From Promethearchaeati archaeon SRVP18_Atabeyarchaeia-1 (GTDB lineage Archaea; Asgardarchaeota; Atabeyarchaeia; Atabeyarchaeales; Atabeyarchaeaceae), in the NCBI GenBank assembly GCA_037308085.1, contig CP147779.1:1600001-1664000 (forward strand): DNA of 64,000 nucleotides. Reading direction: 5' to 3'. Numbering within the stretch: position 1 is the stretch's first letter; each line of letters starts with the position of its first letter. The notes under the pieces are model-generated. The model searched no databases. It was not told the origin of the DNA and was given only the letters and a program-made list of their open reading frames with translations. The position numbers were made by a program, and so were the translations under genes. Shown here piece after piece: positions 21,924 through 46,917 of this stretch.

Positions 21924-22072
21924 TCAAATCTGGTCGATATCATCGATGAATTGCACGGCCAGCCTCAACATGTCTCAAAGGTAGCCAACTTTTCTGGCGT
22001 GTCTTCACGATTGTGCCAAACAACCTAGAACCCATCCTCTGCCAGACCGATAACTGAGGTCGTCTTAGGCCC
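21924..22072 (-). pseudogene. Displaced, decayed duplicate of the 3' end of the M28 peptidase gene (23272-24507)
   Basis: Translates as TSVIGLAEDGF*VVWHNREDTPEKL../DMLRLAVQFIDDIDQ versus intact TSVIGLARDGFPVVWHNREDTPKKL..DMLKLAVQFIEDVDQ; one stop and one deletion. Confidence 0.9.
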
Positions 22073-22121
22073 CTATTATTCTGTTCTTGAGAATGGGTGG
22101 TATTTAGGGTTCCGTGGGCAA

Positions 22122-23255
22122 ATGCCTAGCGAATATCGAGGCAGATCAGATTTGGTCCATGAGTTGAATATTGATAACTTGTCGTCTCAAGAGTGGAGTT
22201 ATCTTCACGGGTTGTTTCTGACAGATGGGTGCTCGAATATTTCGAGGATCAGAGGCTCGCCTATTGGTTATCGAGTGGTATTCTATTTCGGTGGAAAGAG
22301 CGATGATGAAAAGGCTTCAGCCCAAAAAGTTGCAGGACTATTGAAGCGTATTGGACTGAACCCAAGGATCAAGGCAGTTCCAGGAAAAAGGATGATAATA
22401 GTGCAAGTATTCTCGAAAACCCTCATGAGATTTCTGCCAGACAAGAACAAGCTGACGATAGATGCCAAGGAGAGACAGAGATTCTTTGAGGACAATGGAC
22501 TCTGTGATACCGGTGGCAAGAGAGGAATTGCGTTCTTGGCAGGTCTCTTGGATGGCGATGGATACTGTGCGGTGGATGTGGCGACTTGCCGCTTTGGGTT
22601 GTTGCAGCAATAGAAGTAGGGTTTTACTCAGGGCAAGTATCCGTTTCTCGTTGACTATATGAGGAGGCTCATTGGGTTCCTTTCTCAAGATAGTGTGAAT
22701 GTTAGGATGCGCAATGACGGCTGTTCTGAGGTACGTATTTGTAAGCCTGGGATTGTGGCATTACTCAATGCTGGGATCGCGAAATACTCTTGGAGAGTGG
22801 GCGTCTGGCTGAAGAGAATAGCCGCGGCTCGGAGCGAAAGAGCGAAGTACTATACTGTCGGGCAGGCTGCACGTGAATTGGGCGTCATGTGTAAGACTGT
22901 GCGAAAGTGGCTTAGAATGGGCAAAATGAGGTGGATCAGAAGAGAGGGAACCAGAGTAAGAAAGAGAACCAGAACGGTGATGGGTCGATCCTTATCATGG
23001 TACTATATTCCTATTGACGAGGTAGTCAAGCTTAAGGCTTCCTTGGAAGCCGAGAGGCAAAGTGTGCGAATGCTAAAGAATGAAGGGGTGGAGTTTTCGA
23101 GACTAGCTAAAATGTTGGGTGTCCCATATTCTACGCTGTATTGCTGGTATCAGGGCGGAGTGTTTCAAGCAATGCTGGTTAAGGAGAGGAATCTGCGAAT
23201 CTTGATAGTGCCGAAGAGAGAAGTCGAAAACATCAAGAGAAAAGCGGAGAAATGA
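22122..23255 (+). pseudogene. Double-motif LAGLIDADG endonuclease-like protein with two C-terminal MerR/excisionase-type HTH repeats, interrupted by in-frame TAG codons at 22611 and 22617
   Basis: YLHGLFLTDGC and FLAGLLDGDG; ORFs 22122 and 22659 are in the same frame and linked by TAG AAG TAG GFTQGKYPFLVDY; YTVGQAARELGV..TVRKW. Confidence 0.85.
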
Positions 23256-23271
23256 AAGGACCAAGTCTCTC

Positions 23272-24507
23272 CTACTCTCTTTTCCTTTCATCTGCCCCTC
23301 TTTGATCCACGTCTTCAATGAATTGCACTGCCAACTTCAACATGTCATACAAGTTCTCGCTGCTCAGCTTCTTGGGAGTATCTTCACGGTTGTGCCAGAC
23401 TACTGGAAATCCATCTCTCGCCAGTCCTATCACTGAGGTTGCTCTGATTCCCTTTTTTGAGTAGAATGCTGAGTCCGTTCCTCCCATTGAGAACGGACGT
23501 ATCTCAACAGGGTACTTGATACCACACTTGGAGGCTGAATGTTGAAGCATCTTGCAGAGTTCCATTGAGTGCTTCGTCGTATACATCTTCTCCTCGTTCA
23601 CAATCACGAACCTACCAACTCCAGCGGTGTCAAAGTTTATTACATAGGTGTTCCATTTTTCGAGTTCCCTTAGATGCCTGTCTACGAATCTTTTTGAGCC
23701 ACGCATACATTCTTCACACCCATGCGAGATCAATAGAACGCTCGTATTGCGTGGTCTGTTGCCTGAAAGATACTCGGCGACTCCGAGGGTGACCGCAACG
23801 CCTGAGAGGTTGTCATTTGCCCCCAATGTTTGTGTGCCAGACTTCAACCCGAGTCTCAATGCTACAGTCAATATCACACCTATAATGGGCACTAGAATGA
23901 GGAGATCAAAGAGTCTGAATCCCAGAAGGGTCCAGTTCATGTAGAACAGGTTGAAGTACTCGCCCGAGATCTTCGCGACATACACGGCGAAGATCAGACC
24001 GATAACTACTATTATGATGGTTATGAACCTGGATGACTTCGCCCTCCACTTTATTGGAATTGGGAATTCGACTGGGCTATCGTGGTGTGCCCCAATTATG
24101 ACAGTCGCCTTTGCCTTTCCCTTCGCTTTGATTTTCCCATAGATATTGGCGGAGGTTCTCTTCCTGAATAAGGGGTCGGCGAATTCTCGCAGGTGATTCA
24201 TCTCCAGGACGTAGCAGAGTAACCCCAGGACCGTGAGCAAAACTGAAACCCAGGTGAACCACAAGTAGAATCCTGCGGCCAAAAGCTGCAGTACAGGAAT
24301 GATATTGAGGATCCCTAGGAACCCTCCAGGCCTACACGTGAAAGGCTCAACTTTCACCTCGTCGCAGAACCTCTCATACTCCACCTTTATCACCTGGCCG
24401 GCTTTCGACTCGTTTTCGCTGGTGCCAGGTCTTGACCCTATGTCCTTGCAGACGCGCTCTATGAAGCCAAACATATAATCAACATAGGACTTCTTATCCA
24501 GCTTCAT
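23272..24507 (-). CDS. M28 family peptidase with internal TM insertions
   Basis: GAHHDS, GANDNLSG, GCEE, NFDT, GTD, WH. Confidence 0.9.
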   Translation of the reverse strand: MKLDKKSYVDYMFGFIERVCKDIGSRPGTSENESKAGQVIKVEYERFCDEVKVEPFTCRPGGFLGILNIIPVLQLLAAGFYLWFTWVSVLLTVLGLLCYVLEMNHLREFADPLFRKRTSANIYGKIKAKGKAKATVIIGAHHDSPVEFPIPIKWRAKSSRFITIIIVVIGLIFAVYVAKISGEYFNLFYMNWTLLGFRLFDLLILVPIIGVILTVALRLGLKSGTQTLGANDNLSGVAVTLGVAEYLSGNRPRNTSVLLISHGCEECMRGSKRFVDRHLRELEKWNTYVINFDTAGVGRFVIVNEEKMYTTKHSMELCKMLQHSASKCGIKYPVEIRPFSMGGTDSAFYSKKGIRATSVIGLARDGFPVVWHNREDTPKKLSSENLYDMLKLAVQFIEDVDQRGADERKRE

Positions 24508-24750
24508 CGTAATCCCTCACTACCCATGTTCGCGCTGACCAGCTACATAATTGTTTAGTTTCATGGTTCTGTTAACTCTTCGAGTGATGAGTCAACTGGG
24601 TGGGTAGCTCGCTTTGTCTACGATGGGAGGGGGTTGCGAAGAGAGAAGAAAGCGGGACGAGGTAACTCAAGTTCAGCAATAAGCATTTATTAGCCGCGTG
24701 GGCTGTTACGTGGTGAATATACTGTTGACGCGCGCCCGAGGGCGCCGTTT

Positions 24751-27321
24751 GTGCGAATCAAGGTGGTCATCGAAGAGATGGTGAAGGTATTGAAGGATGA
24801 GATCCCAGAAGTTGGGAGCGTTTCGTTTGAGAGTCAGGCATCGAAGCCGGTCCCGTATGAATGGGGGTTCGGGTCCACCCCGCGTACGGCCCGCCTCAGA
24901 GCCGCCCTCAAGTGGAAGGCGGCCGTCGTAAAGGACTTTGAAAACATATTCATGGGGCTGGCGAAGTGTGGGTTCAGAAACGGGGAAGACATCAAGGTTG
25001 ATATAGACCGCGCGAGGCTCATAACTGAGTCGTACAAGCAGACCGATGGGCAACCGTGGGTCAGCCGCGTCGCCAAGGCTTTCGTTCATCTCTGCGAAAA
25101 CATGCCTATCTACATCAAGGATGGCGAGCTGATTGTCGGTGATCCCAACAGCGCGCCGGACGAACTGCGGTGGCACCCAGAGATATGCTCGCACTTCATG
25201 TCCGGCGCCGTCACCGACGGAAGCTTCTCAAGTATGGTCACCGACGCTGAGAGGGAGGAGATTGTCTCCAGCATCTGCGCGTTCTGGGACGAAAGGAGCA
25301 TCGCCGCAAGGATAAGGGCGGTCCTGCCCCGAATCTCGTGCCAAGACATATTCGAGGGGCTCGCCACCCCCATAGAGGCGAAGCTGTGGGAGATGGGAAT
25401 AGTAAACCCGTCTTACGATTACTCTGCCCTCTTCAAGGAGGGGCTAAACGCGCGGATCGAGAAAGCCGAGCGCAGGTTAAGGGAGCTCGAGAGTGGCACC
25501 CTCGGGATTCCGCCTTCCCAGTATGTGGAGAAGAGAAACAACTGGGAGGCGATGATCATGTGTGGCAAGGCTCTAATTCGTTTTAGCCAGCGCTACGCCG
25601 AGCTCGCGAGGAAGCAGGCGCAGCTGGAGCGGGACGCCATGCGCCGGCAGGAGCTGGAGGAGATAGCCGACGTGCTGGAGCGCGTTCCGGCCAACCCCGC
25701 AAGGACATTTCGCGAAGCCCTCCAGTTTTACTGGATCGTAGAGGTCGCCGCCAAGTTCCTCGCCGTGTACGGACACGGCGGCGGTCACAGGTTTGACCAG
25801 ATATTCTTCCCCTATTATGAGGCGGACATGAAGAAGGGCAAGCTCGCCCGCAAGCAGGCTTTGGAGCTCATTGAATGTCTCTTCCTGAAGATACAGGAGG
25901 TCGGCATCGCCCTCGAGTACCCCGTGACATTCACCGGCAAAGCGGGCGGCGAAATATTCTACACGATAAACATTTGCGGAAGCAAGAATAACGGCGAAGA
26001 CGCATCCAACGATCTGAGCTGCTTGGTTCTGGAGGCGATGTGCAACCTCCGCATCAACCAGCCACCGATAGCGGTTCTCTACCACAAGAACATCTCACCA
26101 GCCATCGTGGAAAGGGCAATAGACCTTCTTCACCTTGGCACAGGGCATCCTTCTTGGTTTAACGAAGATCTCCTTCAGGAATTGATAATGCTACGTGGTT
26201 ACTCTCCGAAGGATGCGAAGCGTGTTACGGTGGGGGGCTGCGTCACGCCTCACATCACAGGGAAATACCTGATTACAACTGGGACACCGGGCATCGGAGG
26301 AATGATCCTTCCAAAAGTGCTCGAAGAAACCTTGTATGACGGCGGTTCTACGGGAAACGAGGGCAGACCTGACAAACCGAAGACGAAGGATCCTAGGATT
26401 ATGACGTCCGCCGACGAATTGCTGGAAGCGTTCCTCGAGCGCGCCCTCTTCTACTGCAAGGAGATGACCTTCGCGTGGAACCTCGCCCAAGAAGTGCTAA
26501 TGGCAACCAGTCCAGATCCCTGCAATTCCCTACTCCTCGATGAACCCCTAGACAGGGGAATTGACCTGAAGAAGTTGCACAAGGAATACGATACGTATCC
26601 TGCTGTTTTCGCCTTGGGATTGATGACTGTTGCGGACTCGCTTGCCGCTATCCAGAGGCTCGTTTTCGACGAAAAGAAGTACACGATGGACGAGCTCATA
26701 ATAGCGTTGAAGAATGATTGGAAGGGGTACGAGGCGATGCGTCAGGAGTTCCTCAACGCCCCGAAGTACGGCAACGACGACGACTACGCCGACTCGTGGG
26801 CTGTGAAGCTAGCCACACACTTTGAAAACACGATCAGCCAGTTGAAGGACGCGTGGGGGTACAAGCTACTGAGCGACGGCGGAACCGCCGCGGGCTACCA
26901 GACCGTTGGACTGACATGTGGCGCCACGCCGGACGGGCGACATGCGATGACACACCTGACGGACGGGAGCCGTTCCCCGATGGCGGGAGCAGACAAGAAG
27001 GGTCCAACGGCTGTGCTGAATTCAGCGGGTAAGATACCATTCACCCACATGGAGCTCTTCAACCAGCGCTTCATGCCCACCTTTCTAGAAGGCAAGAACA
27101 GAGAGCTCTTCGCGGCGTACCTGAGAGTGTGGTGCGAGAAGCGCACAATACCGCACATACAGTTCAACGTCGTGGACAGTGCCCTTTTGAGGGATGCGCA
27201 GAACCACCCTGAAATGTATACCGACTTGCAGGTTAGGGTTGCGGGGTACAGCGCGTTCTGGATCGACCTACCAAGAGGAACACAGGACAGCATAATCGCC
27301 AGAACAGCGCACAGCTTCTAG
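24751..27321 (+). CDS. Glycyl radical enzyme (PFL superfamily), substrate unknown
   Basis: VRVAGYSAFW glycyl loop, GGCVTP Cys loop, APKYGNDD, ATPDGR. Confidence 0.92.
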   Translation: MRIKVVIEEMVKVLKDEIPEVGSVSFESQASKPVPYEWGFGSTPRTARLRAALKWKAAVVKDFENIFMGLAKCGFRNGEDIKVDIDRARLITESYKQTDGQPWVSRVAKAFVHLCENMPIYIKDGELIVGDPNSAPDELRWHPEICSHFMSGAVTDGSFSSMVTDAEREEIVSSICAFWDERSIAARIRAVLPRISCQDIFEGLATPIEAKLWEMGIVNPSYDYSALFKEGLNARIEKAERRLRELESGTLGIPPSQYVEKRNNWEAMIMCGKALIRFSQRYAELARKQAQLERDAMRRQELEEIADVLERVPANPARTFREALQFYWIVEVAAKFLAVYGHGGGHRFDQIFFPYYEADMKKGKLARKQALELIECLFLKIQEVGIALEYPVTFTGKAGGEIFYTINICGSKNNGEDASNDLSCLVLEAMCNLRINQPPIAVLYHKNISPAIVERAIDLLHLGTGHPSWFNEDLLQELIMLRGYSPKDAKRVTVGGCVTPHITGKYLITTGTPGIGGMILPKVLEETLYDGGSTGNEGRPDKPKTKDPRIMTSADELLEAFLERALFYCKEMTFAWNLAQEVLMATSPDPCNSLLLDEPLDRGIDLKKLHKEYDTYPAVFALGLMTVADSLAAIQRLVFDEKKYTMDELIIALKNDWKGYEAMRQEFLNAPKYGNDDDYADSWAVKLATHFENTISQLKDAWGYKLLSDGGTAAGYQTVGLTCGATPDGRHAMTHLTDGSRSPMAGADKKGPTAVLNSAGKIPFTHMELFNQRFMPTFLEGKNRELFAAYLRVWCEKRTIPHIQFNVVDSALLRDAQNHPEMYTDLQVRVAGYSAFWIDLPRGTQDSIIARTAHSF

Positions 27322-27656
27322 CTGAGTCATCGACGCAGTTGCCAGTCGCTACTGGTGTGCCTTGGTATTGTCCAGGGTGCCCGCTTGCTGTGCAATTCAC
27401 ACGGAGGCTTAGTCATAATAAGACGGATCGAAACACTGTGCAAGGAAATGCTGCACCCCAAAATGTTTCTTGTGATCAGTACTCGTGTTGCATCCCGCGA
27501 TGGTTAACGCTCTTCCACGTCTCACGCCAAGTTGACAGAGCCCTGAAACATAAGGCTGAAATACTAGATTTGATCTACCACAAGAAGCTCACAATTTCTC
27601 AATTACTTGTTGGCGCTGCGGTTTAAGGGATATAGAGTATTGGAGGAGATTTCTCC

Positions 27657-28151
27657 TTGTCGCATGAAGAGGACGAAGTTGGGAAGCGGTCTGCACAGAT
27701 GGTAGGGCTGCTAAAATCAATGAGAGGAAAAGCAGGGCGGCTTTTTCCTGGGTCTCCATTCTCACAGTGGCTGAATGGTACGGTTGTGGATGCTAAGCGC
27801 GGGGAGATCGAACTGGAGTTTATCGTTCGCCCTGAAATGGCTAACCCGACAGGGCTTCTGCACGGCGGCATGCAGTGCGCTCTAATGGATGACACCATCG
27901 GAATAGCCGGCGCAACTTTGGGGTACGAAGGCTTTCTGATGAGTGTGGATTTTCACGTAGACTACTTGGGGACGGTCAAGGTTGGGGAGAAGGTCCGTGT
28001 CAAGGGGCAGATTGTGCGCGAAGGCAGGAAAATCGTTCACGCGATGGCGGAAATACACGACATGGTGGGAAAACTCGTTGCAGCCGGCAGCTCCAACCTT
28101 ACAAGAACGAGTTTCAGACCAGACTATGCAAGGCAATTAGAAAAAGAGTAG
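27657..28151 (+). CDS. PaaI family hotdog thioesterase
   Basis: NPTGLLHGGMQCALMDD. Confidence 0.9.
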   Translation: MSHEEDEVGKRSAQMVGLLKSMRGKAGRLFPGSPFSQWLNGTVVDAKRGEIELEFIVRPEMANPTGLLHGGMQCALMDDTIGIAGATLGYEGFLMSVDFHVDYLGTVKVGEKVRVKGQIVREGRKIVHAMAEIHDMVGKLVAAGSSNLTRTSFRPDYARQLEKE

Positions 28152-28289
28152 ACGCACAGTGGCTTGACGTATATTGTATGCAGGCTCGAGATTCGGGCAG
28201 TCCATTATTGTTTAGGCCAGGCGCCGATTCTACTTCTTCCTCTGAATCCCGTCTTAAGACGTATTCCTTCGCGGGCGATACAGACCATT

Positions 28290-28455
28290 CATCTACCAGC
28301 TCCGATCAAGTTACAGGAAGCAACCGAAATGCCGTTTCCCTTTGAGTCCTCGATGACGATTGCTTCTGCAAGAAACGTGTCATGGACGCCCCGCGAGAAT
28401 CCTTTCCTCTCGATATAGCCTCCAAGATGAAAACCGACAGGCGGGTTATATCGCC
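28290..28455 (-). pseudogene. Fragment resembling the N-terminus of neutral/alkaline ceramidase-like proteins
   Basis: DIT/PVGFHLGGYIERKGFSRGVHDTFLAEAIVIED with a frameshift and a stop. Confidence 0.4.
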
Positions 28456-28500
28456 GCCACTGTCACCAGCTCTGAGGCAACTTCTGCAGGTTGTTATGCC

Positions 28501-29328
28501 CTAAGTCTTGGAGGATCTTGCAAAAGCTAGTCTGAACTCTGACGCCACTTCCCGCGAGATGTCAAGATTGTTGTATCTCTTGTTTGCCCAGTCACGGAGT
28601 TGCTCGATTATTTCATGATGCGCTTCGTCAGGAACATTCCACGTGCCAGAATAGACTTTGTCGGCAAGGCCTTGAATTATCGAGTTGATGGTCACGTGTC
28701 CCACCCAGCTGTGGGTCTCGGGATCGGAGACAGTCCATCCGCTCCCCCTCAAGTACTTGATGGCTTCCTCTATGTCGGAGACCCCTAGTCTCCTGTAGTG
28801 GAACCCGTGCTTACCTCTTATCTCCTTATATTTCTCGTTAACCTCTGCTGAGACTCCTGTCCTGATGGACTCCCCAATAGCCATCGGCGCACCATCGCGT
28901 AGGACGCGCCCAGCCTCGCTCGCCACTAGATGCCAGTTTTGGATAAGATGCAACACTTGGAAGCAGAGCGCAGCATTGAAGCATTTGTCTCTGAAAGGCA
29001 GGTTCTGGGCGTCTGCCACAACGGGCTGCAGTCTGCAAAGCCATTCTCGCCTAAGCTTAGAGAGCATAAGCCGAAGCATCTCCTTGCTTACATCCACCCC
29101 GACTACCCTGAATCCTCGGACAGCCAGAGGAACGGAGAACCGCCCTGTGCCGGCGCCAATGTCAACGACCGACATGCCTTCCCCGCTACCTGCCTCAGAG
29201 AAGACCTCGCGAGATACCTCTATGCACACTTCATCTGACATTCTTCTAGTTGAGTCGTAAACCGGCGCTATACGCTCAAAAGACAGAGTGCCTTGATGCT
29301 GAATGCCGGAATTAGCCAACTCCGCCAT
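28501..29328 (-). CDS. Class I SAM-dependent methyltransferase
   Basis: VDIGAGTG, GVDVSKEML, ADAQNLPF. Confidence 0.9.
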   Translation of the reverse strand: MAELANSGIQHQGTLSFERIAPVYDSTRRMSDEVCIEVSREVFSEAGSGEGMSVVDIGAGTGRFSVPLAVRGFRVVGVDVSKEMLRLMLSKLRREWLCRLQPVVADAQNLPFRDKCFNAALCFQVLHLIQNWHLVASEAGRVLRDGAPMAIGESIRTGVSAEVNEKYKEIRGKHGFHYRRLGVSDIEEAIKYLRGSGWTVSDPETHSWVGHVTINSIIQGLADKVYSGTWNVPDEAHHEIIEQLRDWANKRYNNLDISREVASEFRLAFARSSKT

Positions 29329-29604
29329 CCTCTCCTTTTCCGATCCTACCCCTCTTTCATGTTCGCCGAGACTCCATTTCTCGACACCTTGAAATTGGCC
29401 GTACGTTCGATATATGCATTCCCCTCTCGCCGCAAATTGATTCTCGACGTGCGGTCAAGAAAGGAGTACTTCATAGTCGTGCACCGACTGCATCCGCAGG
29501 AGACTAAATAACGGGCAGACATCCGCATCTCGAATCCATGTGCCCGACGAGCCAACATGTGATGCCAGGGAGAACCTTAGAATTAGTACGCTTAGGGGTC
29601 CTTT

Positions 29605-30519
29605 TCATAGGGTGAGTTCCTCAACTTTCTTCATGGCCTTGTTTATCTCTTCTAGGGTCAAGTTGTTCTCAAGGATCTTGAGCCTCTTATCTTCGATGGT
29701 GAAGGCGCACTTCTTTACTTGGTTTACCTCTGCAGTCTGGAGAGCTTCTTCAGCACCCAGCCCTTCAGCTGATACAGTCTTCTCGATAGAAGGCGCCTCT
29801 TTGCTGATCTGGAAGACCTTCACCTGGCCCCGTTGACTAATCTCTACACTCACTTTTCCTCCAAGAGTCTCTACAAAAGCCAGAGTGTAGACAGCGGCCA
29901 CCTTGTCGTACTCCCGTTCCTTGTACCTCTCACGCATCGTCTCCCTTTCCGCAATTATTTCGGGTGCCCTTCCAAATTTCTCCTCAAGCGCTTTTGAAAC
30001 TTCCTGAAACTGAGGCGGGGCTCCCGTGAAACCTCCAAGTTCGCGCATGGCAGTTGGAACCTTTATGCTGGCTCTCGCAAGCGTATCCTCTTCTAGGAGT
30101 TCAATCTTCTTTCTGAAGAGCGCTTTCACTTCAGCGAAGGTGTCTTTAGCCTGCTTGTCTTTTGCGAGGTCGGCTTGGTTTATTTCCACTATCTGGAGTT
30201 TCTTGGTTCCCAGCTTGCCGATCGGATACGAGATGTTTGGAAGCTTATAGCCTTGCGATGAGACATCTGCCGCCTTTCTGCGTGCGATGGCCTTAGTGAT
30301 CCCGTCGACGCCTTCTCCAATCCAAATGTAGAGACGCTCGTTCTGCTCGTCGATTATCAGGGCAGCGCTGTCCTCATTCAGGCTGGCAGGAGACCACCTT
30401 ACCGGGACGACTTCCTTTTCGGGGTTGACTTTCAACATCAATAGATAGTAGTCTTCCTTGGGTCTGAGAGACAAACCTCTATCTCCGCCGCTCAAGCGAA
30501 TTTCCTCCCTCACAACCAT
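29605..30519 (-). CDS. Gelsolin-like domain protein with unknown C-terminal region
   Basis: ASLNEDSAALIIDEQNERLYIWIGEG...AIARRKAADV...IVEINQ fits the gelsolin repeat pattern. Confidence 0.7.
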   Translation of the reverse strand: MVVREEIRLSGGDRGLSLRPKEDYYLLMLKVNPEKEVVPVRWSPASLNEDSAALIIDEQNERLYIWIGEGVDGITKAIARRKAADVSSQGYKLPNISYPIGKLGTKKLQIVEINQADLAKDKQAKDTFAEVKALFRKKIELLEEDTLARASIKVPTAMRELGGFTGAPPQFQEVSKALEEKFGRAPEIIAERETMRERYKEREYDKVAAVYTLAFVETLGGKVSVEISQRGQVKVFQISKEAPSIEKTVSAEGLGAEEALQTAEVNQVKKCAFTIEDKRLKILENNLTLEEINKAMKKVEELTL

Positions 30520-30602
30520 GAATTCACAAGTATCTCGGAGTATCCGTAGGGTAGTACTACCCTATGTTACTCCCATTAATAATACCTTTCTCCACGAGAT
30601 CT

Positions 30603-31115
30603 TCAAATCATAATCTTCTCGTAACAATAGAACGGGAGTTCTCTCCTGGGGAAATGTAACTGACCAACTCGCCTGTACCCGCGCTTTTCGTAGAGCCCCA
30701 AAGCCCTCGGATTGCCGCTGTAAGCATCCAATCTTATGGAAGCATACCCCTTGTCGGTCGCCAGTTTCTCTGCTTGGTCAAGAAGTTTTCCCGCGATTCC
30801 TTTCCTGTGCCATTTCGGATTCACGGCCAGTCTATGAATCGCCATGATTCTTCCTTCTTGAATTGACCAGCCTATGCCCTTGTATTCCGGAGGCTGAACC
30901 TCATTTATAGTGACGATACCTAGAATCTCGTCCTTTTCTCTAATTTCATAAAGAGATCCGCTCTTTATATCGCTTTGAAATATCTCGCGTGTGGGATAGT
31001 ACTCGTTCCACTGATGGATTCCGTGGGATTCCATATCTCTTATGCAGCCGTCGATTAGACTCATGATTCTGCCAATGTCACTTTCCTCAGCTAGCACTAT
31101 CTTCACTGCAAACAA
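30603..31115 (-). CDS. GNAT family acetyltransferase
   Basis: HRLAVNPKWHRKGIA, NPRALGLYEKRGY. Confidence 0.9.
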   Translation of the reverse strand: MFAVKIVLAEESDIGRIMSLIDGCIRDMESHGIHQWNEYYPTREIFQSDIKSGSLYEIREKDEILGIVTINEVQPPEYKGIGWSIQEGRIMAIHRLAVNPKWHRKGIAGKLLDQAEKLATDKGYASIRLDAYSGNPRALGLYEKRGYRRVGQLHFPRRELPFYCYEKIMI

Positions 31116-31557
31116 ACCCCTGTAGACTGCGAGCTCTCAGGTGTGGATAATCCCAACTCCGCGTCCCAAGACAACGATTCATTCCCAAACATATTTAGAA
31201 AGTAGCTAACGTCCCGAGTGTTACTCGAGTCAGACTTCAAGCGATGTACCGAGACTATGTTGGCAGTACCCTCTCTTATAATGCATCTCATTCAGCTGTT
31301 ACAGGCATGATTTGTCCAGTCTCTCAACGCTGTGATATCCTCTGAGTTTGGTCGACTCAGGCGGCGCCTGTATGGAAATACTTTCAATAATCGGAGAGCT
31401 ATGATCACTGTTTATAACTGAACAATTGAGTCGTTGTTTCATCAAATACTATTTAATTTGAGCGATCCATGTTATGGGACAGTGGATTGCCGGATCAAGG
31501 TTGATAGGTTTCGCCTTGTCTGGAGAGGAATAAGTGAATTAGAAGAGGTCTTTCTGC

Positions 31558-32457
31558 ATGAGGATCTATTTCGTGTATACCGGTGAGTTTGGGGAGAGAG
31601 TCATCGGTAATTTGGTGAACGATAGATCCTTCTGCAAGGTTTGTGGTGCCTCATGCACTGAGTGCAGGTGGAAGCCAAATTGGAGCTTCGCCGACAGAGT
31701 AGTAGGCGTCTCAACTGTACCAGACACTCTTCCCGTCATTGTTGACGACCCTGAAACCTACATGCCCAAGAATCCGCCCAAGTGTGACGTACTTGTTTCC
31801 ATAGGAATTCATCCTGACGTTGCCTCAACGTTGCCTCTGCTTGCAAAGCAGGCTGAGGCAAAAGCTGTCATAGCGCCTGTCGAAGACCCAAAGTGGATGA
31901 GCCGCAACATGCAAACCGAACTTGAGAAGGGGCTGGCAGAAATGGGAATCGAGAGCGCATTCCCAAAGCCCTTCTGCTCCCTGGAACCTACGGGAGGACC
32001 TACAATAGACTCATTCATAAAGGAACTGAGAATAGGGAGACCGCTAATGCATGTCACCCTTCAGGGTGCAAGAATAGCGGATGCCGAGGTTCTAAGATCC
32101 GCGCCGTGTGGATGCACGTGGTACATAGCGGAGACTATAAAAAACCACTCACTGATTGGATTGGAAGAAAGGATCGCATTGTCACATCACTCCTACCCGT
32201 GCACGGCGAGCATGGAAAACGATCCTGTGCTCAAAGAGAAGATCCTTCACAAGGCCGGGTACATGGCTCGAGAAGCGGTGAAGCGTGCAATTGACGAGTT
32301 CGTCTTGGCGCATCCAGAAGTCGAGCAGGAAGTCATGCAGGCAGTAGCGCTAACGGGAAAGGAGACGCAAGTACCGCGAGAAGTGACGACTGCGTCAGAC
32401 GCTGAAAGGGAAATTAGGGAGGTTTTCGCGGAGAATGCCGCCGAGAATAATCCCTGA
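31558..32457 (+). CDS. DUF166 family protein
   Basis: PKPFCSL, RSAPCGCT, HHSYPCTASM, ILHKAG. Confidence 0.85.
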   Translation: MRIYFVYTGEFGERVIGNLVNDRSFCKVCGASCTECRWKPNWSFADRVVGVSTVPDTLPVIVDDPETYMPKNPPKCDVLVSIGIHPDVASTLPLLAKQAEAKAVIAPVEDPKWMSRNMQTELEKGLAEMGIESAFPKPFCSLEPTGGPTIDSFIKELRIGRPLMHVTLQGARIADAEVLRSAPCGCTWYIAETIKNHSLIGLEERIALSHHSYPCTASMENDPVLKEKILHKAGYMAREAVKRAIDEFVLAHPEVEQEVMQAVALTGKETQVPREVTTASDAEREIREVFAENAAENNP

Positions 32458-32683
32458 GAAATGTAGGGGCTGCAACGACTGTGTAATAGTGTGCCCTAAC
32501 AAGATCATCTGCGTAGCGAACGGTAAGGCGAAGATCACCGAGCCGGAAGCGTGCATCGAGTGCGCGAATTGCATCGATAACTGTGGATGCGGCGGGATAA
32601 CTGGGGCAAAGGAGCGGCACGAAGGCTACCTTAAGGTTGCTCAAATAGCCTCCAGACGAATGTCACTCGTCAAAAAGGAGTAG
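32435..32683 (+). CDS. 2x[4Fe-4S] ferredoxin-like protein
   Basis: CRGCNDCVIVCP and CIECANCIDNC. Confidence 0.9.
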   Translation: MPPRIIPEKCRGCNDCVIVCPNKIICVANGKAKITEPEACIECANCIDNCGCGGITGAKERHEGYLKVAQIASRRMSLVKKE

Positions 32684-32739
32684 TATCACTCGTTTCGCGT
32701 AGCGGCGGCTCTGAGTTTTTCTGTCTCGGAAACCATTGC

Positions 32740-33081
32740 CTAGAACTTGGCTCTCATCCCCAGCGCACAGAGACCGAGTTGAATTACGTCAAAAGCCATC
32801 GTAATGAAGGCAAACATCAATCCGATTATGATCCCAGCGATGCTAAAGACAATTCCTGCGATGCTGATGAGCAGTCCAAGCTTGAAGCTCCATTTTCTGA
32901 GCTTAATCAAGCCATAGATTACAGCTATCCATATCGGGAAAAACGGAATGATGGAAACTGCCAAGAGAAGGTTCTGTGGGATCATAGCTAGGGCTCCGAC
33001 CTCGATGAAGGCATGTATGATCATATTGGTGATGAATGAGGCAAATGCGCCCGAGACTATAGTTCCGACTTGGGGGCTCAT
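32740..33081 (-). CDS. Hypothetical membrane protein
   Basis: Four hydrophobic segments, YGLIKLRKWS. Confidence 0.65.
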   Translation of the reverse strand: MSPQVGTIVSGAFASFITNMIIHAFIEVGALAMIPQNLLLAVSIIPFFPIWIAVIYGLIKLRKWSFKLGLLISIAGIVFSIAGIIIGLMFAFITMAFDVIQLGLCALGMRAKF

Positions 33082-33306
33082 AGCTATCCTCGCCTTGTCA
33101 CTGATTCCGAAGGGAATTGTTTCTGCTTCATATCAGACTCAACGGTTATATAGTTTATCTTCTTCAGACCATCCTCGCAATTACTTCCGAAACCATGAAC
33201 GATCAAGAGAAAGGATTTATAGCAAATAACCACCACTAGAAAGCCTAACGGTAAAGACAATTATGTCCAAAGTAAGTTCAGGCGGAATACAAAAACCGTT
33301 CACCTG

Positions 33307-33738
33307 GTGGTCATCTTGGGTGAAGAAGCTACTCTTCTTGACTTTAGGAAGATTCAGGAGATACTGTACTCGCTTTCGCGTGATTGCCCCGGAATATCGG
33401 GGAGTGCGGTTCTAACCAAGGACGGTCTGCCCGTAGCCTCGGTTGTTCTTCCTGAGGGAGTAGATGAAGCTATGCTTGCTGCGATATCCGCATCGATCCT
33501 GACAACTGGGAGACTTGCAGCAAACGAGCTAAGACATCAGGGCGGAGTCCAACGTGTGATTGTTGAGACGAAGGATGGAACCATAGTCGTGGCGGGAATC
33601 CCTGAAGCTGAGGCTGTGCTAACGGTGACTGCGTCAAGGGATACGAAGCTGGGAATGGTTTTCCTAACCATGGATAAGGCATCCAGAAAGCTCAAGGAGG
33701 AATTGACGAGGTTCCTTTCTTCAACTAGCAGGATTTAG
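33307..33738 (+). CDS. Roadblock/LC7 domain protein
   Basis: GSAVLTKDGLPVAS, LAAISASI, VIVETKDG, KLGMVF. Confidence 0.9.
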   Translation: MVILGEEATLLDFRKIQEILYSLSRDCPGISGSAVLTKDGLPVASVVLPEGVDEAMLAAISASILTTGRLAANELRHQGGVQRVIVETKDGTIVVAGIPEAEAVLTVTASRDTKLGMVFLTMDKASRKLKEELTRFLSSTSRI

Positions 33739-34820
33739 TGTCTTGGGAGTAGCTCGAAGCTTCTTATTACTTCACTCTTCATGTCGTCCAGCCCGCCCAA
33801 TTTCACTTTGTTGAGTTCCTTTACCGCTTCAAGTGGGCTCAGCTTGAGCATGTTTGCTGCAAGCTTGTAGTGTTGCAGGGTGTTGAGCTTCTCAGCGACC
33901 CTCTTCTCCTTGGCGCCAATCAGCTCCTTGAACATCGTTTCGGCCTCAGCGCTCTCTCCAAGCAGTTTGTACAGCATGGTACTCATCATGAGATTGTATG
34001 AGAACCTCTTGTAGTCGCTGGGTGACGATCGCCCGACGAGTAGCAATGGATCGAGATTCATAAGGGCAACCCTGAAGCCGACCGCGGCGTCTAGCAGTAT
34101 CTTGGATGCCTCTGGCACCAAGTCATTCTTTAAGAGGGAGACCACTTGGGCTACGCGGTTCTCCGAAGAGCGCTGCAGTAGAATCGACTTGGTTTCCATT
34201 GCAATTTCTCCCATTCCTGTCTTCGGAAGAAGATCGCTCAACTGCTCCAGCGAGGCGACATAGGCTGAGCCTATTCTCCCAAACGCCTCTGAAGCCTTCG
34301 CGTAGTCTTCCTTGTCGAAACTCTTCCTAGCTTCCTTTTCCAGCTCGATTATGTTCTCCCCAGTGCCGAGGATAGACCCCTGGGTCATCATTCTCTCTGC
34401 GTCGCTCCAAAGCTTAAGCGCCGCAAAACAGTCAGCGGCACCAGCATAGCTTGCAGCGGCTGCCCCGTCAAACCGTTTGCGCCCCACCTTTGCGTAGGCT
34501 TCGCCAGCCTTCTGATAGCAGTCTATGGCGTCACCCCAAAGCTGTGACTTGCGAAGTGAGTTAGCAACGAAGAGGAAAATCTTGCCGGCTTCTGAGAAAG
34601 CCCCATTCATCTCCAAGGTCTCGGCAGCCTCGATCAGCGAGCATGCCCAGCTCGCCAATTCTCCGTATTCGGACAGTGCGCTGCCATAGGCGAGGAACGC
34701 ATCGGCTGCATCAGAATAGCTCCCACGCTCCATGTATTTCGCGGCTCTATCTCTGATGCGGTTGGCTTCATCCATCTTCTTTGCCCAGGTTCCGAACTGA
34801 TCATCGGTGTCTGCACACAT
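33735..34820 (-). CDS. TPR/alpha-SNAP-like helical repeat protein
   Basis: Repeated A..F..A/AG..F/AIDCYQKAGEAY helices. Confidence 0.7.
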   Translation of the reverse strand: MCADTDDQFGTWAKKMDEANRIRDRAAKYMERGSYSDAADAFLAYGSALSEYGELASWACSLIEAAETLEMNGAFSEAGKIFLFVANSLRKSQLWGDAIDCYQKAGEAYAKVGRKRFDGAAAASYAGAADCFAALKLWSDAERMMTQGSILGTGENIIELEKEARKSFDKEDYAKASEAFGRIGSAYVASLEQLSDLLPKTGMGEIAMETKSILLQRSSENRVAQVVSLLKNDLVPEASKILLDAAVGFRVALMNLDPLLLVGRSSPSDYKRFSYNLMMSTMLYKLLGESAEAETMFKELIGAKEKRVAEKLNTLQHYKLAANMLKLSPLEAVKELNKVKLGGLDDMKSEVIRSFELLPRH

Positions 34821-35148
34821 GGTTCCAAGATCCCCATTTCACATTTGTTGGAAGCCTTGTAGAAATGGCTTAGCTAGATTAGCAATTGCTACTTTATAAA
34901 CTCAAAGGAAGAAGGCAGTTGATCGGAATCGGCTGTCCTCCGATCTCATATCCTCCTAGTGGTGAAAGAGAAACCGCAACTTCCACTCTATGCGTAGGCA
35001 CTGGTTGCAGGTGCAGGGTATTCCTTTTGCGAATACTGAAAATTAACCAAGGTAATATATTATTCCAGGATATTATACAGGGTAATATTTATATACCTGT
35101 CCTCACACTAAAAGAAGAAAAACAGCGTCTAGCACGACGACAAAGGAG

Positions 35149-35310
35149 ATGACACAAGACATGCTACGATGCGAAACATGCGGACGGCAGCTCACGTACG
35201 ACAAGGCAAACAGAGACATTAACGATGGCGGAAAGCCATTCCACTTCTGCAGCAGAGAATGCGAGAGCACGTGGAAGGAAACCATCAGAAACGTTTCTGT
35301 AGCTCATTAG
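35149..35310 (+). CDS. Small TRASH/YHS-type metal-binding protein (53 aa, not in ORF track)
   Basis: CETCG...FHFCSREC; AAGGAG SD. Confidence 0.75.
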   Translation: MTQDMLRCETCGRQLTYDKANRDINDGGKPFHFCSRECESTWKETIRNVSVAH

Positions 35311-35408
35311 AACGCAGGGCGCCTCAGCATTGAGCGCTCTAAGCGCTCGACTTTCCTCTGCTTCTTTCACCGAGCTGATCCGCATAGAAAAAGTGGGGAG
35401 AGGTTCAA

Positions 35409-35580
35409 CTAAGCGGTTCCAGACTGCCTTTCAACCTCAAAAGCAATTCGAACCTCAGCTCTGAATGCGGTCACCTGACTATTATCAACCTTAACTTCTA
35501 GTTTCAGAACTTGGGCCACGACTCCAACTCACTGCTTCGCCTGGTTGCCCAGTACTCCCAGTATGCTTCAGCCAAGTCAG
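35409..35580 (-). pseudogene. Displaced, decayed duplicate of the dodecin gene (37305-37508) 3' part
   Basis: LEVKVDNSQVTAFRAEVRIAFEVER versus intact FDVKIEDNKVVAFRAEVQIAFEVER; stop at 35529-35531, frameshifted upstream. Confidence 0.85.
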
Positions 35581-35703
35581 GGAGTAGAGAAAAGTGGATT
35601 CTTGCCGCTCTCTTCTCCAGCGTCAGATGCAAATGGTTGTATTAATAGGAAATTCCTGCACTTGATTCTTGTCGGATGCGAGCTCAACAGCTGAGGAGGA
35701 AGA

Positions 35704-37077
35704 ATGCGGCTGAACCCTTTGATGAATGTGGATGCACTAACAGGTCAGGAACGTAGCTACCTGTCAGGTTTGTTCTTTGCGGATGGATGTTTGAGCAGGG
35801 ACAAGCGTCTCCAAGAACAGCCAATCAGGTGCGTCGCCTACTCCCTTCAGGGGAATGAAGAGGAACTGGCGCACAGGGTCATTGCGATCATGGAGCGCGC
35901 AATGCTAAAGCCCCACTTGTACAGGGCGAAGGATAAGGATTGCCTCTACGTTGTTGCGAGTTGTACTAATCTTGGTGAGTTCTTCCCGAGCAAAGAGACT
36001 ATTTTGGCTGATGGTGAAGCGAGGCGAAAGTTTTTCGAGGATGGCAACTTGGTGTTTGATCTTGGGAATCGTGTTGCATTCTGTGCAGGTCTTCCTGATG
36101 GGGACGGGACATGTGAGGCCACCTTTACGGAGGTTCGCAGCAAGAGGGCGACAAGCGTGGGTGGCGTCCATGCGCGGTGACTTTTCACTCAGACTAGCTA
36201 TCCTTTTCTGCTCGACTTCCTTCGAGAGACACTTGAGAGCATCGCAGCTCACTCTACGAGTGACATCTGCCGTGAGGGATCGCTCTGCGGTGTGATGATT
36301 AAGATTGACGGAAGGCAAGCACTGCTTGGGGCTGGAATCGCCAAGTGGTCGTGGAAGGTAGGGACTTGGATGAAATCTTTTTCTGCTATCAGCGACGCCA
36401 AATGCGAGGAGAGGGCTGCAAGAGAGAAGCTGGCCGAGAACGGAGGGCTCAAGCTTGTTGATGTAGCTAAGAAACTAGGCGTCCGCCCTTCGATTCTGCA
36501 CCGTATGTACTGGAGTGGCCGATTGCAAGCCGAACTTGTACGTGAGAGAGCTGGCATCGGTCGCCTTGTCATTCCGAGGAACGAGGCTGAAAGGCTAACG
36601 AGTTTGCTTTCTGAGAGGAGGAGGGATCTGAAAAACGTCAAGGATGACGGTGGAGCAAAGCTCACGGATGTTGCCAAGACCCTTGGAGTTCCACAGAGTA
36701 CGCTGCGCAACTTGCGATTCCGCGGTGAGATGGAAGCTGTTCTAGTTCGGGGCGCTGGTAAGGGTGGTCTTGGACGCCTTTTCATACCTGTGAATGAGGT
36801 TGAGAGACTCACGAAGATCGTAAGCGACAATAGCGAGAATGCGAGCAATGCAGAGCGAAATGGAATATTACTAAAGGAAGCGTCAAAGATCCTTGGTCTG
36901 GCGCCCAGCACGTTGCGCAATTGGCGTCGTCGCGGAAAGCTCAATGCCACTCTTGTGCGGACGGGAATGGGTGTAGACCGATTAGTGATCCAGACAAGCG
37001 AGGTCGAGAGGCTTGAGGAGGAACTATCGAAGAAAAGGCGCCGACAAGAACAAGCGAAGCAGGCGCCTATCTGGTAG
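35704..37077 (+). pseudogene. Double-motif LAGLIDADG endonuclease-like protein with three MerR/excisionase-type HTH repeats, interrupted by an in-frame TGA at 36178
   Basis: YLSGLFFADGC and FCAGLPDGDG; same frame continues TGA LFTQTSYPFLLDF into ORF 36292; paralog of 22122-23255 (ALL.AGIAK.SW.VG.W). Confidence 0.85.
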
Positions 37078-37304
37078 GTTTTCTGTAGACGGACTACCAG
37101 TGAGCGTGAAGGCCCGTTACCAAAGTAGCGTCATCCAACCACGAGTCCATGCGTGCCATCCAGAGATGATCTGAGCTCAGTCCCTTCAATTCTTCTGTTG
37201 CGGAGACTGAGATCATTAGAGTGAAGTGAGATCAAGTTATCGTTCATGTTCCCAAAAAAAGAGATTGGATGAGTTAGGAACTCACACACGCGCTGCATCT
37301 CACT

Positions 37305-37508
37305 TTACCTTTCCACTTCGAACGCTATTTGGACTTCCGCCCTGAAGGCAACTACCTTATTGTCCTCTATCTTCACGTCGAATGCTCTTACGCTAGCTCT
37401 CTTGATTCCTCTGACGGTCTTTGCGGTTTCCTCAACAGCGTTCCTTACTGCTTCAGCAAATGATTCCTCGGAAATGCCGACAACGTCTATTAGTTTCCAG
37501 ATTGGCAT
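37305..37508 (-). CDS. Dodecin family protein
   Basis: KLIDVVGISEESFAEAVRNAVEE..KTVRGI...IAFEVE. Confidence 0.92.
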   Translation of the reverse strand: MPIWKLIDVVGISEESFAEAVRNAVEETAKTVRGIKRASVRAFDVKIEDNKVVAFRAEVQIAFEVER

Positions 37509-44946: not shown

Positions 44947-46098
44947 CTATTTTTCAAATCTAGCGAGCAGTTCCTTTAATCCTACATTATAGCCTTGTCT
45001 GAAATCGGCGTACTCCTTGTCTGCAATGAGTGGGGGTATCTTGCATTTTTGAAGCAAAACAGGTAATACGACCACAGATTTCATCTGCAGTTCTTTCATC
45101 AATGCCGCATTAAGCTCTTTCCTAACCCAATTGGATCTGACGGATGCTTTTGAAAGAACAGTAATAAAGTAATCATTCTTTTCGATTCCTTCGTTTATCT
45201 TATCAAGTAGTGAGTCTCCTACTCTTATTTCCCATTTGTCAATCCAGATCTTTATGTTAGCGCGCTCTAAGTCTTCTACTAAACGATCAACGAATATTGA
45301 GTCCCGATGGGAATAGCATATGAACACGTGATCTGACCGCTTTAAATCATTCTTACTAGGCATACTCTTTGCCCCCAACAACCTGTCTGCTTCAGCGTTC
45401 CTCTCTCGCTCGGCACGCCGATCATCGAGAATGGCTTCTCTAAATCCTCTTGCTTTTTCTTCCAAGTCCTCTAGACCAACTACCCTAACTCTTTCATTTT
45501 TGCGAAAATAGGACATAAGGACGTCAAGGTATGGCTCTCCGTCGTCAAACACGATTTCGTCGGTCATTAGATGTGCTTTAACTTTGGACTCTCTCAATAG
45601 TATTTTCCAATGATTTCGCTTGAACATTCTAAATAGCTTCTCTACTTCATTTCTCCTATTTTGCTTTCTCTCCGACTCCTTTTTCATACGATAATTCCTG
45701 ACGTACGGTAAAATGAGATACACGAATATCGCTGGTAACACCCACCAAACTATCGCAATCGGTCCTAAGATGAAGAAAACAGAGATAGCTGACGATGATG
45801 GCAAAATGTAGCTAGGCAAGAAATATGGTAGATACAATATGAAAAGTGAGCCAACTGTTAAGACACCACCAACAATACCCCAATACAGCAGTAACTCATT
45901 ATCCCAGTCGTGGATGAGAGTAGGCACAAATAATATTGGCAAAAACACCCACCAAACTATTGTAATCGTTCCTAGAATGAAGAAAGCATCGATAGAGAAA
46001 AATGACGGTACAAACCATATGAAACATGAGACAAAAATCAAGCCAATGCCGATAGTAAGCCAATACTTGAGAAAATCACCCCAATCATACCAGCTCAA
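44947..46098 (-). CDS. Multi-TM protein with C-terminal TIR domain
   Basis: Duplicated TM unit (FFILG.I.IVWWV), VFICYSHRD, SNWVRKELNAA. Confidence 0.9.
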   Translation of the reverse strand: MSWYDWGDFLKYWLTIGIGLIFVSCFIWFVPSFFSIDAFFILGTITIVWWVFLPILFVPTLIHDWDNELLLYWGIVGGVLTVGSLFILYLPYFLPSYILPSSSAISVFFILGPIAIVWWVLPAIFVYLILPYVRNYRMKKESERKQNRRNEVEKLFRMFKRNHWKILLRESKVKAHLMTDEIVFDDGEPYLDVLMSYFRKNERVRVVGLEDLEEKARGFREAILDDRRAERERNAEADRLLGAKSMPSKNDLKRSDHVFICYSHRDSIFVDRLVEDLERANIKIWIDKWEIRVGDSLLDKINEGIEKNDYFITVLSKASVRSNWVRKELNAALMKELQMKSVVVLPVLLQKCKIPPLIADKEYADFRQGYNVGLKELLARFEK

Positions 46099-46323
46099 AC
46101 TATCAGCTCCTATTGCGTCTCAAAATGATCACGCAGCGCGCGCTAGTAGTGATCGTCCAGTGTGCTAAAATTGCTAAAGATCATGAATCAATCAAAGAAG
46201 TTAAAGAGTTAAAGCCAAACTTCTTTGACTATCTCTCATGAGTTCCCCCAAACTCTTCTTTGGCGAGCGCCCTTTATCTTTTCCGATGTCAGAACGAATC
46301 AGTGTCTCTTAGAGAAAGTACTA

Positions 46324-46917
46324 TCATCGTCTCCAGTAGATATCCCACTTTTTCCTCTGACTGGAATAATTATTTCGCATGCGCCCATTGTTGTGTCTCC
46401 TTACGTTAGCCCAAACGAAAGTAAGATAGTTTTTCATCCATTCTTCTCTTGCAACTCTTCTTTCGATGAAGTCTCCCGACAACTCATCGTCATACAATAC
46501 GAACATATATGCGTGGCGTAAATCTGTCTTGAGCGTTCTTAATTTCTCAAGGTCTTTATTGATGCTAGGAATTTGTAAGCCGTCTAATTGGCACTTCAAT
46601 TCGATGGCGTCTACAAGTTGTGTACCTTTATAAATCGTGATATCTGGCTTTACAAATGTATCTTCCTTGGTCGGTCCATGGCTCAATTCAATGAGCGGTT
46701 GTGACCTTAGAAACCATCGTTCGCTTCTTTCATTTTCGAAATACTTTCTTAGCCAATAATAAGCTGCAGCTTGCATATCAAACTCTGAATAAACGAAATT
46801 TGAATACCAATCCTCAACAAGCTTCTCAGGGAGATCATTCAATATCCATGAATCAGCCTTCGATTCTCCTGGTGATTCTCTTACCTTCCTCAACTCATTA
46901 GCACTCATTTCATTCAC
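46324..46917 (-). CDS. PD-(D/E)XK nuclease-like protein
   Basis: SEFDMQ, KPDITI, AIELK, DLEKL. Confidence 0.75.
   Translation of the reverse strand: MNEMSANELRKVRESPGESKADSWILNDLPEKLVEDWYSNFVYSEFDMQAAAYYWLRKYFENERSERWFLRSQPLIELSHGPTKEDTFVKPDITIYKGTQLVDAIELKCQLDGLQIPSINKDLEKLRTLKTDLRHAYMFVLYDDELSGDFIERRVAREEWMKNYLTFVWANVRRHNNGRMRNNYSSQRKKWDIYWRR

Follow-up and report, generated by a model that had tools for sequence, protein, structure and literature searches.

In the 2.81-Mb single-contig genome of Promethearchaeati archaeon SRVP18_Atabeyarchaeia-1 (hereafter G000), we analysed a stretch of 64,000 nucleotides (the window; positions 1,600,001 to 1,664,000 of contig CP147779.1) that carries two genes with LAGLIDADG and helix-turn-helix (HTH) domains. 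We call the element at the M28 peptidase locus E1 and the element at the dodecin locus E2. The order of features is the same at both loci: a displaced host-gene tail, a free-standing gene encoding LAGLIDADG and HTH_17 domains, and the intact host gene. A reading made from the letters of the window alone (the sequence-only reading) had interpreted these loci as homing elements that replace the tail of their host gene, and this interpretation is largely supported by the comparisons reported here. The features of the two loci, in window coordinates, are as follows.

21924..22075 (−): displaced M28 tail, decayed, corresponding to the last ~50 codons of the gene (tblastx 59.3 bits; a stop and a 7-nt deletion)
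22076..22121 (+): 46-nt spacer 5′ of the E1 start, inside a segment 93% identical to metagenome contig L041
22122..23255 (+): E1, with two LAGLIDADG motifs and two HTH_17 domains, a pseudogene (Pfam, AlphaFold2 model, ortholog P0007)
23272..23451 (−): functional 3′ tail of the M28 gene, duplicated and element-linked (96-98% identical to metagenome contig L067, against 81% for the gene's 5′ body)
23272..24507 (−): intact M28 peptidase host gene, convergent with E1 (Pfam Peptidase_M28, E 8.5e-23)
35427..35549 (−): displaced dodecin tail, decayed, of native type (tblastx 44.1 bits)
35704..37077 (+): E2, a LAGLIDADG paralog with three HTH_17-like repeats, a pseudogene (Pfam; intact ortholog P0014)
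37305..37397 (−): functional dodecin tail, element-linked, of a distinct sequence type common to contig L042 (identity matrix)
37305..37508 (−): intact dodecin host gene, convergent with E2 (Pfam Dodecin, E 2.8e-19)

The sequence-only reading had noted at each locus an intact minus-strand host gene and, beyond the element, a broken duplicate of its 3′ part. Comparison of left and right flanks by tblastx confirmed this arrangement: the scores listed above (E 5e-17 for E1 and 4e-8 for E2) exceed those of all 60 mismatched flank pairs from family loci that served as controls, for which the median was 22 bits and the maximum 30.9. Between the displaced M28 tail (~21930-22075) and the intact tail, 23/31 and 12/15 residues are identical, and the displaced dodecin tail has 18 of 30 residues in common with its intact counterpart over about 35427-35516, making this copy real but somewhat shorter than the 35409-35580 first proposed. 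The M28 fragment has two parts, a proximal one (~21989-22075) that travels with the element and a distal one (21924-21988) that is lineage-specific; a tract of 93-95% identity to L041 starts at the boundary, near 21989. The 46-nt spacer between this fragment and E1 is presumed to be the E1 promoter region.

A hand count on the alignment confirmed that 10 of the 13 shared dodecin residues highlighted by the sequence-only reading use different codons, and the trend it described, an excess of synonymous differences between the tail copies, is present: differences at codon positions 1/2/3 number 10/7/29 for M28 and 8/6/23 for dodecin. Tested against the 2:1:1 expectation for duplication followed by decay of one copy, this third-position bias gave p values of ~0.17 and ~0.3 (combined ~0.05), and duplication with decay was not rejected. 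As the codon bias is not clearly beyond what duplicate-and-decay would leave, it does not stand as the sole argument against that history, and the case rests instead on comparative evidence.

The endonuclease genes

E1 and E2 are paralogous and about 32% identical; both encode LAGLIDADG_3 and HTH_17 domains, and each is a single continuous frame interrupted by nonsense codons: TAG at 22611-22613 and at 22617-22619 in E1, and TGA at 36178-36180 in E2. Each of the three stops replaces a Trp codon of a conserved WxW motif that paralogs and orthologs retain, and P0007, the E1 ortholog (92% amino acid identity), has Trp at both E1 TAG positions. Because these stops occupy codons kept as Trp elsewhere, E1 and E2 are pseudogenes and not recoded genes; recoding of TAG or TGA was ruled out, as orthologs carry Trp there. 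The sequence-only reading is corrected in this respect: both copies in the window are dead, and intact orthologs exist.

The three inactivating changes are all G-to-A substitutions in TGG codons of the same WxW motif, and they are independent in the two paralogs. These recurrent knockouts could reflect chance, mutational bias, or selection for nuclease knockout at a permissive place.

Pfam searches returned LAGLIDADG and HTH families only, with LAGLIDADG_3 at E 3e-8 (E1) and 2e-5 and HTH_17 at E 4e-7 (E1). The two LAGLIDADG motifs read ...LFLTDG and ...GLLDGDG, and the acidic residues that close them, D35 and D146, are the same in all 42 sequences of the family alignment. The AlphaFold2 model for read-through E1 (predicted local distance difference test score, pLDDT, 89; predicted template modelling score, pTM, 0.79), has the pseudo-dimeric alpha-beta-beta-alpha-beta-beta-alpha fold found in LAGLIDADG homing endonucleases. 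The top Foldseek match of this model was I-DmoI (template modelling score 0.73 over ~200 residues), and E-DreI, I-AniI and PI-PfuI were also recovered, with E values of ~1e-7 to 1e-8. The model suggests that the family protein is an I-DmoI-like single-chain LAGLIDADG nuclease followed by one to three HTH_17 DNA-binding repeats. Since the endonuclease gene is a separate open reading frame (ORF) between genes, on the strand opposite the host for E1 and E2, and does not reside in an intron or intein, it is a free-standing member of the LAGLIDADG homing endonucleases. The sequence-only description of intron- and intein-free LAGLIDADG genes is thus upheld by an I-DmoI-like model and by the invariance of both catalytic Asp residues.

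The ratio of nonsynonymous to synonymous substitution rates (dN/dS) is 0.19 between E2 and P0014, its intact ortholog on contig L042 (73% amino acid identity), and 0.17 between a further family member, E3, and its ortholog at L017. Judging from these sequences, intact family members are under long-term purifying selection. The invade-fix-decay cycle of homing endonuclease genes predicts nonsense mutations such as those that other copies carry.

Element-free alleles and the exchange of host-gene tails

Empty alleles were available from G001, a genome of the same genus as G000, from G002, of the same family, and from metagenomic lineages. The M28 locus is element-free, with a single uninterrupted gene, in G001, G002 and the lineages L055, L056/57 and L058, and wherever its neighbour is kept, this is the convergent abhydrolase gene also found beside it in G000. 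In L055 (P0162) other genes lie 3′ of M28, and a family member is absent there. The dodecin locus is element-free in both G001 and G002, with downstream synteny kept. Tandem paralogs of the host genes, which the sequence-only reading had singled out as counting against it, were looked for at these empty loci and none was found; a single host gene occupies each.

P0014 lies at the same dodecin locus, with the same layout, on the 89-kb contig L042. The functional dodecin tails of G000 and L042 are 86% identical, bases beyond the stop codon included, as against 61-71% between these tails and the native tails of G001 and G002. The displaced fragments of G000 and L042 show the reverse affinity, being 70-73% identical to native tails and 58-60% identical to the functional tails of their own genomes; the G000 fragment, taken singly, is 70-71% identical to the native G001/G002 tails and 59% identical to the functional tail of G000. 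The dodecin heads are 83% identical between G000 and G001, 85% between L042 and G001, and 76% between G000 and L042, and in the G000-G001 comparison head and tail differ significantly (Fisher p 0.014). These tail identities indicate that the functional tail is a distinct allele travelling with the endonuclease gene and that the stranded piece is the original tail. The displaced dodecin tail is accordingly nearest to element-free orthologs, as the sequence-only reading had anticipated, and both fragments are of native type.

At the M28 locus, the evidence for movement comes from the Joint Genome Institute (JGI) contig L041, which carries P0007 and overlaps L067, a contig from the same sample, over 127/127 nt. 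L041 and the window are 73% identical in the abhydrolase flank. From ~21989, inside the displaced tail, through the endonuclease gene to ~23650, identity of L041/L067 to the window is 93-98%: L041 is 93-97% identical from ~21989 through the endonuclease gene, and L067 is 96-98% identical over the functional M28 tail and an adjoining roughly 200-400 nt. Further 5′ in M28, the identity of L067 to the window falls to 91-93% and then, in the 5′ half of the gene, to ~81%; the tract takes in roughly the 3′ 400-650 nt of the intact M28 gene. Synonymous divergence (dS) of the endonuclease gene between the window and L041 is 0.087, against nucleotide divergence of ~27% in the flank. An element that is 93-98% identical where the flanking genes are only 73-81% identical points to a homing-type conversion tract.

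The M28 gene of L067 is itself a mosaic, its body closest to P0162/P0164 (83-84%) and its 3′ part 96-97% identical to G000 but only 72-78% identical to P0162/P0164. The distal part of the L041 displaced fragment is a decayed tail of the P0164 type, native to that lineage, which places the crossover inside the fragment. Such a pattern marks a gene-conversion tract, through which a diverged lineage received as one block the proximal fragment and the endonuclease gene along with the functional tail and part of the M28 sequence upstream of it. In the displaced M28 fragment of G000 the proximal part is not native; it moves with the element and acts as a second homology arm.

These comparisons substantiate the proposal that element and functional tail form one unit, as the two travel together between diverged lineages at both loci (L041/L067 and L042). 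That the displaced tail is the native one was borne out at dodecin; at M28, G000 alone is ambiguous, and the native tail was identified only through L041/L067. Separate histories of the 5′ and 3′ parts of the host gene, a further expectation of the sequence-only reading, were recovered as discordant groupings in identity comparisons of both dodecin and M28.

The family beyond the window

Relatives of G000 named in the records are Ca. Atabeyarchaeum deiterrae-2 and isolate LC30 (Atabeyarchaeia or 'Promethearchaeati' metagenome-assembled genomes, MAGs). G000 holds six family copies, four of them intact, and LC30 has at least 14 loci. A profile search at E<=1e-20 found the family in 3/3 genomes of this archaeal family and in 0/397 other genomes of the phylum, and at E<=1e-30 about 94 family clusters were found among 1.84 billion representatives. 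The family has so far been seen only in Atabeyarchaeia (Asgard archaea).

Across three Atabeyarchaeia genomes, 10 of the 20 testable family loci have flank scores exceeding every tblastx control. E3 adds an eleventh duplication locus by orthology with L017, and further duplicates lie on the metagenome contigs L042 and L068. The layout thus recurs at about ten unrelated genes, in keeping with the retargeting that had been proposed from the two window loci. The earlier view that host tails are replaced also stood, though not its restriction to tails, since heads are replaced as often. Duplicated tails belong to the M28 peptidase, dodecin, a class I/II aminotransferase (L024) and a 136-aa ORF (L048), and duplicated heads to ferredoxin (E3/L017), a GPN-type GTPase (L019), an FAD-linked oxidase (L027), a DUF3786 gene (L018) and an alpha/beta-hydrolase (L031). 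The direct duplicates are 45 to about 180 nt long, vary in length and coincide with gene ends, and the hosts at these duplication loci all have orthologs at element-free loci in G000. When fragment and intact copy were compared with the G000 ortholog, over what are short segments, the fragment was nearer in L027, L019 and L031 and the intact copy in L024 and L018.

All direct duplications of the three genomes have the fragment on the 5′ side of the endonuclease gene and the intact host on its 3′ side. As a strict rule for the family this polarity fails, being broken by metagenome contig L068. Terminal inverted repeats were looked for at the element ends and none was found. Loci L069 and L070 were left out of the layout reading, as their flanks are too short.

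At the E3 locus the repeats lie at L013:4832-4876 and 6791-6835. The repeat is the head of the ferredoxin gene, and it matches no tRNA or Rfam family. The ferredoxin gene 3′ of E3 starts with ATC instead of ATG in both G000 and LC30 (L013, L017), and the displaced ferredoxin head 5′ of E3 keeps an ATG and a GGTGAT Shine-Dalgarno-like motif. At L024:2422-3789 (LC30 contig JAHPYV010000105), a 455-aa gene with DUF4062 and TPR domains separates the endonuclease gene from the displaced aminotransferase tail; this gene may be cargo of the element or may have inserted later.

A second type of cassette is present in G000. At C1:1242049-1242927 (+), a 292-aa ORF encodes HTH repeats, four in tandem, and ends in a short domain containing a PD..EV-like motif; its Pfam matches are to HTH families only. 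It is flanked by a 23-residue displaced TldD/PmbA-like tail (1241781-1241849) and the intact gene (1243392-1244822), with a flank score of 38 bits (E 3e-6). Layout and polarity are those of the LAGLIDADG cassettes, the putative nuclease is different, and this second cassette appears to use the same gene-end-replacing strategy.

Two observations stand apart from these loci. A more distantly related 307-aa LAGLIDADG ORF of G000 (446659-447582, within C1:446226-447843) is bracketed by an exact 15-nt direct repeat that resembles a tRNA 5′ end, and ARAGORN found no tRNA in the segment. Within the window, positions 45001-55000 have a guanine-plus-cytosine (GC) content of 0.41-0.46, compared with 0.48-0.55 elsewhere, and a strongly negative GC skew; this segment may be a foreign island.

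Homing model, rival explanations and known systems

We consider it very probable that E1 and E2 are dead members of a family of free-standing homing endonuclease genes that replace host-gene ends. In the model that we favour, the mobile unit would consist of the endonuclease gene with a fragment of the host-gene end on one side and that same end, complete and functional, on the other. The enzyme would cut within the terminal segment of a target gene whose allele lacks the element, and a filled allele would serve as template for repair of the break, with the gene-body side pairing with the donor's functional terminus and the outer side pairing with the donor's fragment. The recipient would gain both the endonuclease gene and the donor's presumably uncuttable terminus, so that the host gene would stay intact without splicing, and the recipient's own terminus would be stranded as a new fragment and then decay. 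After fixation the endonuclease gene would itself decay, giving the state seen in this window. The displaced fragment would then be a working part of the element, a homology arm, which the exchange point in L041 supports.

What was observed of this model is its anatomy and fold, the conservation of the catalytic residues, the existence of empty alleles, the conversion tracts, and the discordance in history between the 5′ and 3′ parts of the host genes. Resistance of the carried end to its own nuclease is suggested by the fixed differences between native and element-linked tails, and the 'recoded, cleavage-resistant' tails and 'non-essential targets' of the sequence-only reading are likewise inferred.

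Several points weigh against this interpretation. That the enzyme cleaves, where it cuts and that the carried end resists it are parts of the model that we infer. The functional M28 tail of G000 is 74-75% identical to G001/G002, and the fragment 67%, so that the functional tail is no outlier; on this evidence G000 or a near relative looks like a long-term carrier and not like a fresh recipient. The best evidence for mobility comes from two short metagenome contigs of 2950 and 1457 nt, although an assembly chimera of L041 and L067 is unlikely because identity falls stepwise and the native-type fragment is decayed. The sequence-only reading had looked to other family members for displaced tails, and the outcome is divided: about half of the family loci have a detectable duplicate and about half have none, with E5 being a plain intergenic 1.7-kb insertion relative to empty G001/G002 loci. 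At L068:48-2305 (JGI Ga0314860_0000337) an intact dual-specificity-phosphatase-like gene comes first, followed by the endonuclease gene and then the displaced tail, with all three in one direction (69.8 bits); such opposite polarity is the classic order of the fungal mORF and yeast WHO elements considered below. Finally, at L029:2563-4646 (LC30 contig JAHPYV010000037) a broken family member lies between inverted enoyl-CoA-hydratase-like tails (last 98 codons, 63% amino acid identity, 143 bits), neither of them attached to a gene body, and this inverted layout is unexplained by the homing model.

Among other explanations, the one that survives best is Campbell-type integration, in which a circle carrying the endonuclease gene and a copy of the host-gene end would enter by a single homologous crossover, the nuclease being stimulatory or irrelevant. 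Such an event would give the topology observed, direct repeats with one intact and one truncated copy, and in a study of Atabeyarchaeia mobile elements 10 of the 18 integrated elements that it reports have circular forms alongside them (PMC11529989). No LAGLIDADG element is mentioned in that study, and the unit of 1.4-1.9 kb lacks an integrase, replication or partition gene. Moreover, identity on the gene-body side steps down from 98% through 91% to 81%, and exchange also occurred at a second point, within the fragment, a combination that fits two-sided break repair better than one crossover. We therefore regard integration of this kind as improbable.

LAGLIDADG plus HTH is also the architecture of the bacterial regulator WhiA, and the duplications could in principle be a coincidence, ordinary local duplication and decay of gene ends near a domesticated WhiA-like regulator. 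Several copies are indeed intact and under purifying selection. Both catalytic Asp residues are nevertheless invariant, the LAGLIDADG_WhiA model matches only at E 0.035, below threshold, and the distribution is patchy, with empty orthologous loci and pseudogenes. A gene dS of 0.087 beside a flank that differs at ~27% of nucleotides is at odds with a resident regulator, as are duplications that bracket the gene at about half of loci compared with 0/60 controls, and we give this coincidence very little credence.

Less plausible still is an insertion sequence (IS)-like transposon whose insertion made a target-site duplication with one copy decaying: direct repeats do flank the gene, its HTH domains resemble those of transposases and excisionases, and JGI labels some members 'transposase-like' or 'excisionase family', but there are no terminal inverted repeats, the repeats are variable (45 to ~180 nt) and sit at gene ends, the catalytic domain is a LAGLIDADG nuclease with no transposase fold, functional tails group by element presence and not by host lineage, and the G000 dodecin copies are 59% alike, compared with 66-71% to orthologs from other genera, even though same-genus G001 is empty.

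Returning to gene-end-replacing homing, we also lean, with less assurance, towards a broader proposition: that Atabeyarchaeia host an expanding, splicing-free 'third category' homing family, in which a modular I-DmoI-like nuclease with an HTH_17 array, retargeted to at least ten unrelated chromosomal genes, swaps either end for a resistant copy, that gene termini are mosaics of horizontally exchanged segments, and that the second cassette, with its four HTH repeats and different C-terminal domain, behaves alike. Our literature searches found no description of gene-end-replacing homing elements in archaea. The sequence-only reading, which knew of no such architecture described there, agrees with this; outside archaea, where it had cited fungal mitochondria, the architecture has also been published in yeast, as WHO elements (PMC7282813). 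The mobile-element catalogue of complete Atabeyarchaeia genomes, which was built on coverage variation, is without these small cassettes (PMC11529989). One consequence is that an ordinary metabolic gene can owe its end to recent horizontal import, which may mislead single-gene phylogenies and strain analyses of MAGs. The family also offers a natural series in which one nuclease scaffold, I-DmoI-like with HTH repeats, occupies many sites, for work on the evolution of LAGLIDADG specificity and the role of DNA-binding modules.

In their single-chain form with two motifs, each ended by an acidic residue, the family proteins are like I-DmoI and the archaeal intron and intein LAGLIDADG enzymes (PDB 2vs8, 1b24, 1dq3). 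Unlike those enzymes, which sit in rRNA introns or inteins and need splicing, the family genes are free-standing and carry a C-terminal HTH array. With WhiA they share the order of a LAGLIDADG followed by an HTH domain. WhiA, a conserved regulator present in single copy, no longer has the catalytic residues, whereas the family keeps them and is multi-copy, patchy, horizontally transferred and often pseudogenised. The free-standing homing endonucleases of T4-like phages (Seg, Mob; 'intronless homing', e.g. mobE, PMC2790892) are likewise free of introns and inteins and spread by a double-strand break with flanking co-conversion, the donor being protected by polymorphism, but they are GIY-YIG or HNH enzymes located between genes without a duplicated gene end.

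Nearest to the family among known systems are the yeast WHO elements and the mORFs of fungal mitochondria, of which it is an analogue in archaea. For the WHO ('weird HO') elements at FBA1 in Torulaspora and Lachancea, the model of gene-end-replacing homing has been shown experimentally (Coughlan et al. 2020, PMC7282813; see also Osborne et al. 2026, bioRxiv 10.64898/2026.08.13.744650). Here, as there, a free-standing LAGLIDADG-type gene with an added DNA-binding domain replaces the host end, the old end persists as a fragment that is a second homology arm, host-gene 5′ and 3′ phylogenies are discordant, and pseudogenes accumulate. WHO elements differ in being intein-derived (Hint plus LAGLIDADG) with a zinc finger, in residing in the eukaryotic nucleus with essentially one target (FBA1), and in that their cleavage has been demonstrated; the Atabeyarchaeia family is I-DmoI-like with HTH_17 repeats, is archaeal, addresses about ten unrelated targets at heads as well as tails, and is mostly convergent with or upstream of the host gene. 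Because Pfam found no Hint domain or zinc finger in the family proteins, and the structures they resemble are of the I-DmoI type, we regard the family as an analogue and not a member of WHO, and claim homology no further than the LAGLIDADG fold.

Fungal mitochondrial mORFs with a foreign C-terminus are known from atp6 of Allomyces macrogynus and from atp6, atp9, cox2 and nad3 of Glomus (Beaudet et al. 2013, PMC3630166). They resemble the archaeal cassettes in placing a LAGLIDADG (or GIY-YIG) ORF with a foreign C-terminus at the 3′ end of a gene, where the displaced native C-terminus is nearer to that of relatives. They are, however, organellar; they usually run in the direction of the host gene, often in its reading phase, and the only gene ends that they are known to replace are C-termini, whereas the Atabeyarchaeia family is chromosomal and archaeal, is never fused in frame and has extra HTH repeats. 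With these cassettes, splicing-free, gene-end-replacing homing, known from the nuclei of yeasts and the mitochondria of fungi, would reach archaeal chromosomes too, in the Asgard lineage.

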